A stretch of DNA of 64,000 nucleotides, taken from sequence record NC_014792.1. The stretch is one strand, 5' to 3'. The number at the start of each line of letters is the position of its first letter. The stretch's first letter is position 1. Positions 37,469 through 37,954 of the stretch are shown here, one piece after another. Below the pieces are notes generated by a model. That model was not told the origin of the DNA. It ran no database searches and saw only the letters and a program-made list of their open reading frames with translations. Both the position numbers and the translations under genes were made by a program. This DNA comes from Escherichia phage vB_EcoM_VR7.

Positions 37469-37499
37469 CATAATACTGCACCTACACTCATTTGTACAC
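37469..37499 (-). promoter_or_regulatory. Early promoter (GTGTACAAA ... TATTAT)
   Basis: Minus sense GTGTACAAATGAGTGTAGGTGCAGTATTATG. Confidence 0.5.
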
Positions 37500-37954
37500 T
37501 ACTTTAAATCCGCCGACCAATTTAATTTTAGCGGTTCTTTATATTCACGGTCTAAAACAACCGGAATCTGAACTTCTCCTTTATACGTCAAAGGACCAAC
37601 ATTATAAGATAATGTTATGTGAGGAGTGTAGTCCGGGAAATCATGTGTTGCGCCAATGGCTCGTGCATACATATGTCTGCAACTAAGATAATCTGAATCC
37701 AGTACAAGAACCAGGGTACTACCATCATCGGTTTTCCATACTTCCAGGTGACCAGAGTTGGCTACTTCGAAACTGCCAGAGGCAACAACATATGGAATAT
37801 TTACTCTGGAATAACAAATAGTGGAATGGAATTTTTCACGAGGAACGGGATTAGGTACCTTAAGAGAGCGCTGAAGATTTTCCAGCGCATCAAGAGTTAA
37901 TTCTGAAAATTTGGCTGCAACATAAAGTCCTTCAGAGACTTCATTTAATGTCAT
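37499..37954 (-). CDS. 57B: gp57B, 2H-phosphoesterase (Acb1-like anti-CBASS phosphodiesterase)
   Basis: 151 aa; two H-x-T/S motifs (FHSTICY, PHITLSY); position immediately upstream of 57A as in T4. Confidence 0.75.

Follow-up and report, generated by a model that had tools for sequence, protein, structure and literature searches.

Next to gene 57A, Escherichia phage vB_EcoM_VR7 carries a small gene whose product had been noticed for two histidine motifs. Does this gene encode an anti-CBASS nuclease of the Acb1 type, and would it, together with its neighbours between 35.9 and 38.0 kb, form an island of counter-defence functions? Both ideas originated from a sequence-only reading of the window, i.e., the whole stretch of 64,000 nucleotides from sequence record NC_014792.1, and were followed up by computational analysis. 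The gene and its motifs are located as follows:

37499..37954, minus strand: acb1 (orthologue of gene 57B), predicted from ORF and homology to encode a 2H-phosphoesterase-type cyclic-oligonucleotide nuclease of 151 aa
37820..37828, minus strand: catalytic motif 1, codons H43-S44-T45 (H44/T46 in T4), reverse complement CAT TCC ACT
37613..37621, minus strand: catalytic motif 2, codons H112-I113-T114 (H113/T115 in T4), reverse complement CAC ATA ACA

Homology of the 151-residue protein

The minus-strand ORF 37499..37954 comprises 151 codons and begins with ATG. Its translation contains both motifs which had been pointed out, FHSTICY with H43-S-T45 and PHITLSY with H112-I-T114. Their spacing had been likened to that of 2H phosphoesterases, and the interval of 69 residues between H43 and H112 is indeed the same as that between H44 and H113 in T4 Acb1.

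Comparison with Pfam gave a match to the Acb1 family (PF23474) with an E value of 1.2e-59 and 200.6 bits, the cut-off being 27, which covered profile positions 1–143 of 144; the match to PHROG 755 had an E value of 3.3e-65. Among solved structures, Acb1 of Erwinia phage FBB1 (7T26/7T27) was the best match (phmmer, E 7e-63, residues 9–147), with 97 identities in 140 aligned columns, or about 69%. Direct alignments showed 83% identity over the full length to T4 gp57B (NP_049750.1) and 99% identity to gp277 of vB_EcoM_VR20 (YP_009207335). By tblastn the protein was found in 1,477 phage records, at least 29 of them at 99% identity or higher; the match in Shigella phage fPSFA was 100%, and the record of a close relative, EAWsc9, is already annotated as "anti-CBASS protein Acb1". 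The DNA around acb1 is 95–98% identical to that of VR20, VR25, SP18 and related members of Gaprivervirus (Straboviridae, Tevenvirinae), whose 57B proteins (VR20, SP18 gp57B, fPSFA, EAWsc9) are 99–100% identical and are encoded in the same locus organisation. Judged from these alignments, the product of 37499..37954 is an orthologue of T4 gene 57B/Acb1; it is homology which settles the question of Acb1 identity, the motif pair alone being weak evidence.

A 2H fold would be expected for the protein because of its 69% identity to the solved structure 7T26 over residues 9–147. A single-sequence AlphaFold2 model (pLDDT 37.5, pTM 0.30) was too poor to be used, and the predicted fold is based on this identity. 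The catalytic motifs and the C-terminal lid region can be aligned to FBB1 Acb1 with only one single-residue gap; differences are found in motif 1, which is H-T-T in FBB1 and H-S-T in VR7, and in the host genus of the phages.

In some unrelated phages, an Acb1 domain is fused to the C-terminus of the portal protein. Gp70 of Pseudomonas phage psageK9 (L007, 52–1854) matched Phage_portal_3 (E 5e-89) as well as Acb1 PF23474 (E 1.9e-43), with both HxT motifs intact, and residues 498–586 of the Pam3 portal (PDB 8hds) showed a weak Acb1 match (E 0.14). A fusion of this type would make the nuclease a virion component. For 2H domains of polyvalent phage proteins, a role in countering nucleotide signalling has been predicted (PMC5512222).

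Functional residues

Activity-guided fractionation led to the recognition of T4 gene 57B as Acb1 (Hobbs et al. 2022, PMC9117128), in a report which also bears out the earlier statement that 57B is known under this name. Structures of the FBB1 protein, both apo (7T26) and with 3'3'-cGAMP (7T27), have a compact 2H phosphoesterase fold (Hobbs et al. 2022, PMC9117128), and residues 145–152 of Acb1 constitute its C-terminal lid (Hobbs et al. 2022, PMC9117128). The bases of the ligand are stacked by Y12, W74, F107 and W147, and N6 of adenine is contacted by E141 (PMC9117128); the tetrad H44, T46, H113 and T115 brings about metal-independent cleavage 3' of adenosine, with a cyclic phosphate intermediate (PMC9117128). 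The residue numbers given by Hobbs et al. (2022) fit T4 numbering.

In comparison with T4 Acb1, the founding anti-CBASS nuclease, the VR7 protein lacks one residue at the N-terminus and carries 25 substitutions, none of which affects a known contact or catalytic residue. All nine functional residues described by Hobbs et al. are kept at the respective position minus one (Y11, H43, T45, W73, F106, H112, T114, E140 and W146), so that gp57B and its VR7 counterpart have in common the HxT/HxT tetrad as well as the five residues which contact the nucleotide. H43, T45, H112 and T114 match T4 and FBB1 column for column. An alignment of seven sequences included homologues from Acinetobacter, Aeromonas and Vibrio phages, RB16 and a Pseudomonas phage, with 27–46% identity to the VR7 protein; the four catalytic residues and Y11 were invariant in it, down to 27% identity. 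Neither His-x-Thr/Ser motif was lost on alignment with T4, FBB1 or the distant homologues. The assignment of the ORF to 57B/Acb1 with a 2H phosphoesterase active site, as first proposed from the motifs, is thus upheld by the matches to Pfam PF23474, T4 and 7T26/7T27 and by the agreement of the residues.

Proposed function and alternative explanations

Very probably, the ORF encodes a functional Acb1, i.e., the anti-CBASS nuclease which was first defined as T4 gp57B. Its most likely function, predicted from homology, would be to cleave, independently of metal, the 3'-5' bonds of cyclic di- and trinucleotides which contain adenosine (3'3'-cGAMP, cUA, cAAA), whereby CBASS would be disarmed. For the VR7 protein, we infer from its relatives that it is active, which substrates it takes, when it acts and how it affects CBASS. 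Following deletion of acb1 in T4, hydrolysis of cGAMP was lost in infected cells (Hobbs et al. 2022, PMC9117128), and plating of the mutant was reduced more than 300-fold on CBASS hosts, with no loss on hosts without CBASS (Hobbs et al. 2022, PMC9117128). An independent finding came from a transposon screen (HIDEN-SEQ), according to which acb1 is conditionally needed on a CBASS host. Further Acb1 homologues were assayed by Hobbs et al., and all nine of them cleaved cGAMP and cAAA (PMC9117128).

The following mechanism may be envisaged. The protein would fold as a compact 2H phosphoesterase, where Y11, W73, F106 and W146 would form stacks with the bases of a bound cyclic di- or trinucleotide, the adenine N6 would be read by E140 and the C-terminal lid would close over the ligand. 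Strain imposed on the adenosine should enable its 2'-OH to attack the 3'-5' phosphodiester, with the tetrad H43/T45/H112/T114 breaking, by acid-base chemistry and without metal, the 3'-5' bond on the 3' side of adenosine, presumably via a 2',3'-cyclic phosphate intermediate. Signals of host CD-NTases (3'3'-cGAMP, cUA, cAAA) would be linearised in this way; CBASS effectors would consequently stay inactive, and the infected cell would be spared abortive death.

It would appear very unlikely that the protein is an RNA-end-processing enzyme, i.e., a LigT-like 2'-5' RNA ligase or a 2',3'-cyclic phosphodiesterase, which acts on RNA, for example in the repair of tRNA beside the cluster of tRNA genes, and not on immune signals. 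Such a role is suggested by the family name, since most records of the acb1 family, including RefSeq and PHROG 755, bear the designation "RNA ligase" or "hypothetical protein" and few that of "anti-CBASS protein Acb1". RNA ends of this type are substrates of 2H enzymes generally (PMC5512222). In relatives, tRNA genes are present a few kb from acb1, and a weak match to the LigT-type Pfam model 2_5_RNA_ligase2 (PF13563) was obtained with an E value of 0.24. This match was, however, below threshold (11.9 bits, cut-off 27) and extended over residues 91–121 only, compared with the 200.6 bits for the Acb1 model, and the label "RNA ligase" was rejected on these grounds. Furthermore, every residue responsible for stacking and contortion of the cyclic dinucleotide is kept, and the T4 protein, with its 83% identity, is a demonstrated cyclic-oligonucleotide nuclease which is dispensable where CBASS is absent. 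Common features with the LigT/2H superfamily are the two H-x-T/S motifs and, by extrapolation from 7T26, the 2H fold; differences are the sub-threshold sequence match and the targets, which for the Acb1 family are cyclic oligonucleotide signals rather than RNA ends. The name "RNA ligase" is therefore read as a legacy of this distant superfamily relationship.

Equally slight is the probability that an enzyme of the Acb1 family is present whose main target would be another cyclic-oligonucleotide pathway (e.g., cA3 from type III CRISPR), or whose substrate range has shifted. The 25 substitutions relative to T4 could speak for such a change, but they leave the known contact and catalytic residues unaltered. 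The closest relatives have been recorded from E. coli and Shigella, and T4 with deleted acb1 is restricted by CBASS operons of E. coli (Hobbs et al. 2022, PMC9117128); both points speak against this alternative.

Finally, the frequency of the motifs themselves was considered. Two H-x-[TS] motifs were present in 15% of shuffles of the 151-aa protein and two H-x-T motifs in 2.8%; the window has 76 ORFs of at least 100 aa, 5 of which contain two or more H-x-[TS] motifs. The bare H-x-[TS] pair was dropped as stand-alone evidence because of the value of 15%. When the motif was extended to H-x-[TS]-hydrophobic-x-aromatic, two copies were seen in only 0.01% of shuffles, and every other long ORF of the window lacked such a pair. 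Although sequences of the same composition contain the bare pair that often, the notion that both H-x-T motifs arose by chance in an unrelated small protein has a negligible probability and is refuted by full-length Acb1 homology (E 1e-59 to 1e-63), by the exact alignment with catalytic motifs which are invariant across the family, and by the rarity of the extended motif.

Gene order and expression

The genes which precede acb1 in the direction of transcription are the following:

37951..38190, minus strand: gene 57A, tail-fibre assembly chaperone (Pfam PF17594 GP57, E 4.4e-25; PHROG 1002)
38190..38867, minus strand: gene 1, dNMP kinase (ORF; VR20 and T4 annotation of syntenic genes)
38864..39463, minus strand: gene 3, tail completion (ORF; VR20 and T4 annotation of syntenic genes)

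The ORF had originally been placed upstream of 57A. This is correct in plus-strand coordinates only; as the minus strand codes for both genes, 57B comes after 57A in transcription, with an overlap of 4 nt (ATGA) between the stop codon of 57A and the start codon of acb1. Genes 3, 1, 57A and acb1 form a run of four, each stop overlapping the next start. The order 3-1-57A-57B is common to T4 and to Acinetobacter, Aeromonas, Vibrio and RB16 straboviruses, and the start-stop overlap of 57A and 57B was found in five of six loci (VR7 window, T4, Acinetobacter, Aeromonas and Vibrio), but not in RB16. The acb1 locus of T4 is alike in that the gene is situated directly after 57A with a start/stop overlap, genes 1 and 3 being on one side and the internal-protein locus on the other; it is different in that T4 possesses a single ipI gene, whereas a cluster of five internal-protein genes is the neighbour in VR7. 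From the conserved order and the overlap it follows that acb1 is unusually fixed for an anti-defence gene; its place is at the edge of the conserved block, outside the variable region. A weaker reading of the rigid 3-1-57A-57B arrangement across distant straboviruses would be that Acb1 perhaps has a further conserved role beyond the evasion of CBASS.

No promoter-like element dedicated to acb1 was found at the 57A/57B junction. Because of this result and the overlapping run of genes, the likeliest mode of expression is co-transcription with translational coupling, i.e., acb1 is probably transcribed by read-through of genes 3-1-57A and its translation is coupled to that of 57A. Acb1 activity in T4 arises about 15 min after infection (Hobbs et al. 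2022, PMC9117128), and 57B/acb1 belongs to the middle/late class in T4 transcript atlases. The late-promoter consensus TATAAATA is present inside gene 1 at 38401–38408; gene 1 of T4 also has one, at a different offset. Since the window contains 8 such consensus sites, compared with 5.4 expected by chance, which is not counted as above chance, the site in gene 1 is only a lead.

Between gene 3 and gene 2, another locus showed presence/absence polymorphism:

39548..40219, minus strand: HNH homing endonuclease ORF, 223 aa (PHROG 655, E 1.9e-56; Pfam HNH at threshold)

This ORF has only about 89% identity in VR25, fPSFA, UPEC07 and P479, and is absent from VR20, SP18, VR26 and CJ20, where the flanks are 96–99% identical.

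Promoter-plus-stem-loop cassettes

37460..37498, minus strand: promoter-plus-stem-loop cassette, TGTACA-N17-TATTAT, with arms GTGTAGG/CCTACAC around the -10 box
36476..36516, minus strand: further copy of the repeated promoter and stem-loop
36143..36183, minus strand: further copy
~35845..35895, minus strand: further copy

The cassette at 37460..37498 is located directly after the stop codon of acb1, where the conserved block gives way to the variable internal-protein cluster. In all, four small genes have such a cassette in front of them, namely trna.4 and, counted in the direction of transcription, the first, fourth and fifth of the internal-protein ORFs. Each cassette consists of a -35-like sequence, (G)TGTAC, a spacer of about 17 nt, and TATAAT or TATTAT within an inverted repeat; an identical 31-mer, GGGATAACTGCAGTATAATTATCCCATCAAC, is contained in two of the copies, where none would be expected by chance. 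By their sequence, the cassettes look like PeSL mobile regulatory elements, with a putative function as such; PeSL cassettes were described for hyperplastic regions of T4-type phages (PMC2839356, PMC4122927).

Internal-protein cluster

35896..36129, 36184..36462, 36517..36816, 36825..37097 and 37106..37438, minus strand: five small ORFs with N-termini of the capsid-targeting type (the same five are annotated in VR20)

The variable cluster (35896..37438) begins right after the acb1 stop codon. The N-termini of its five ORFs are MKTYQEFINE (twice), MQTLHEFLVE, MKTFNELFNE and MNIKTYNEFLAE. They resemble the capsid-targeting sequence of T4 internal proteins, which is about 10 aa long and ends in the gp21 protease site L/I-x-E; MKTFNELFNE ends in F-N-E, and L-N-E is found at residues 13–15 of the same protein. 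Three of the five ORFs are taken in by PHROG families of internal virion or head proteins, and none matched a Pfam family. From their leaders and the PHROG families of three of them, the five neighbours of acb1 look like internal head proteins.

For the ORF nearest to acb1, mechanical translation gave 121 aa from an upstream ATG (37106–37471, minus strand; MFLHQRTNGVK...). The start at 37438 (MNIKTY...) was preferred because of the N-terminus MNIKTYNEFLAE, the annotation in VR20 (333 nt) and a GGAG sequence 9 nt upstream. A perfect T4 late-promoter consensus, TATAAATA, at minus-strand positions 37107–37114, shares bases with the stop codon of this ORF (37106..37438); it ends 9 nt before the ATG of 36825..37097, a gene which lacks its own PeSL-like cassette.

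IPI* of T4, an injected protein, inhibits the GmrS/GmrD restriction enzyme; among internal proteins, IPI alone has been demonstrated to act against restriction. Reviewers have regarded internal proteins as diverse countermeasures against defence. BLASTP comparison of the five ORFs with T4 IPI in a six-sequence database yielded matches which covered residues 1–45 at most or were insignificant (E of at least 0.02), and no similarity beyond the N-terminal leader was found for any of the five in this search. An IPI-type anti-restriction label was rejected for them, the similarity to T4 IPI being limited to the leader.

These results bear on the proposal that 35.9–38.0 kb is a compact counter-defence island. 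The part which stands is the location of Acb1 beside five internal-protein-like ORFs; the likeness of the latter to IPI does not go past the leader. For T4, the adjacency of acb1 and ipI was already argued to be an anti-defence island (Hobbs et al. 2022, PMC9117128), and the designation for VR7 may be taken as a reasonable analogy to that published case, which is only partly supported. Tentatively, and with the odds rather against it, the region could be regarded as an island of two tiers, where Acb1 would be the conserved and intracellular component, while the five internal proteins, with their capsid-targeting leaders and their genes behind mobile promoter/stem-loop cassettes, would be packaged in the head and injected, each to inhibit a different host defence. 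This possibility is based on the analogy with IPI* acting against GmrS/GmrD.

Annotation and significance

The acb1 gene of VR7 is already known: it is a classic orthologue of Acb1, of which public phage genomes contain identical copies, and is ordinary in this phage group. Its identification is nothing conceptually new. The practical use is for annotation, where acb1 (anti-CBASS nuclease) should be the name given to the gene, and not "RNA ligase" or "hypothetical protein". The prediction would be that VR7, like T4, resists CBASS signalling by adenosine-containing 3'-5' cyclic di- and trinucleotides, which bears on the choice of therapeutic phages and on the prediction of host ranges. For a search of unknown injected anti-defence factors, the adjacent internal-protein genes would be the more promising site.
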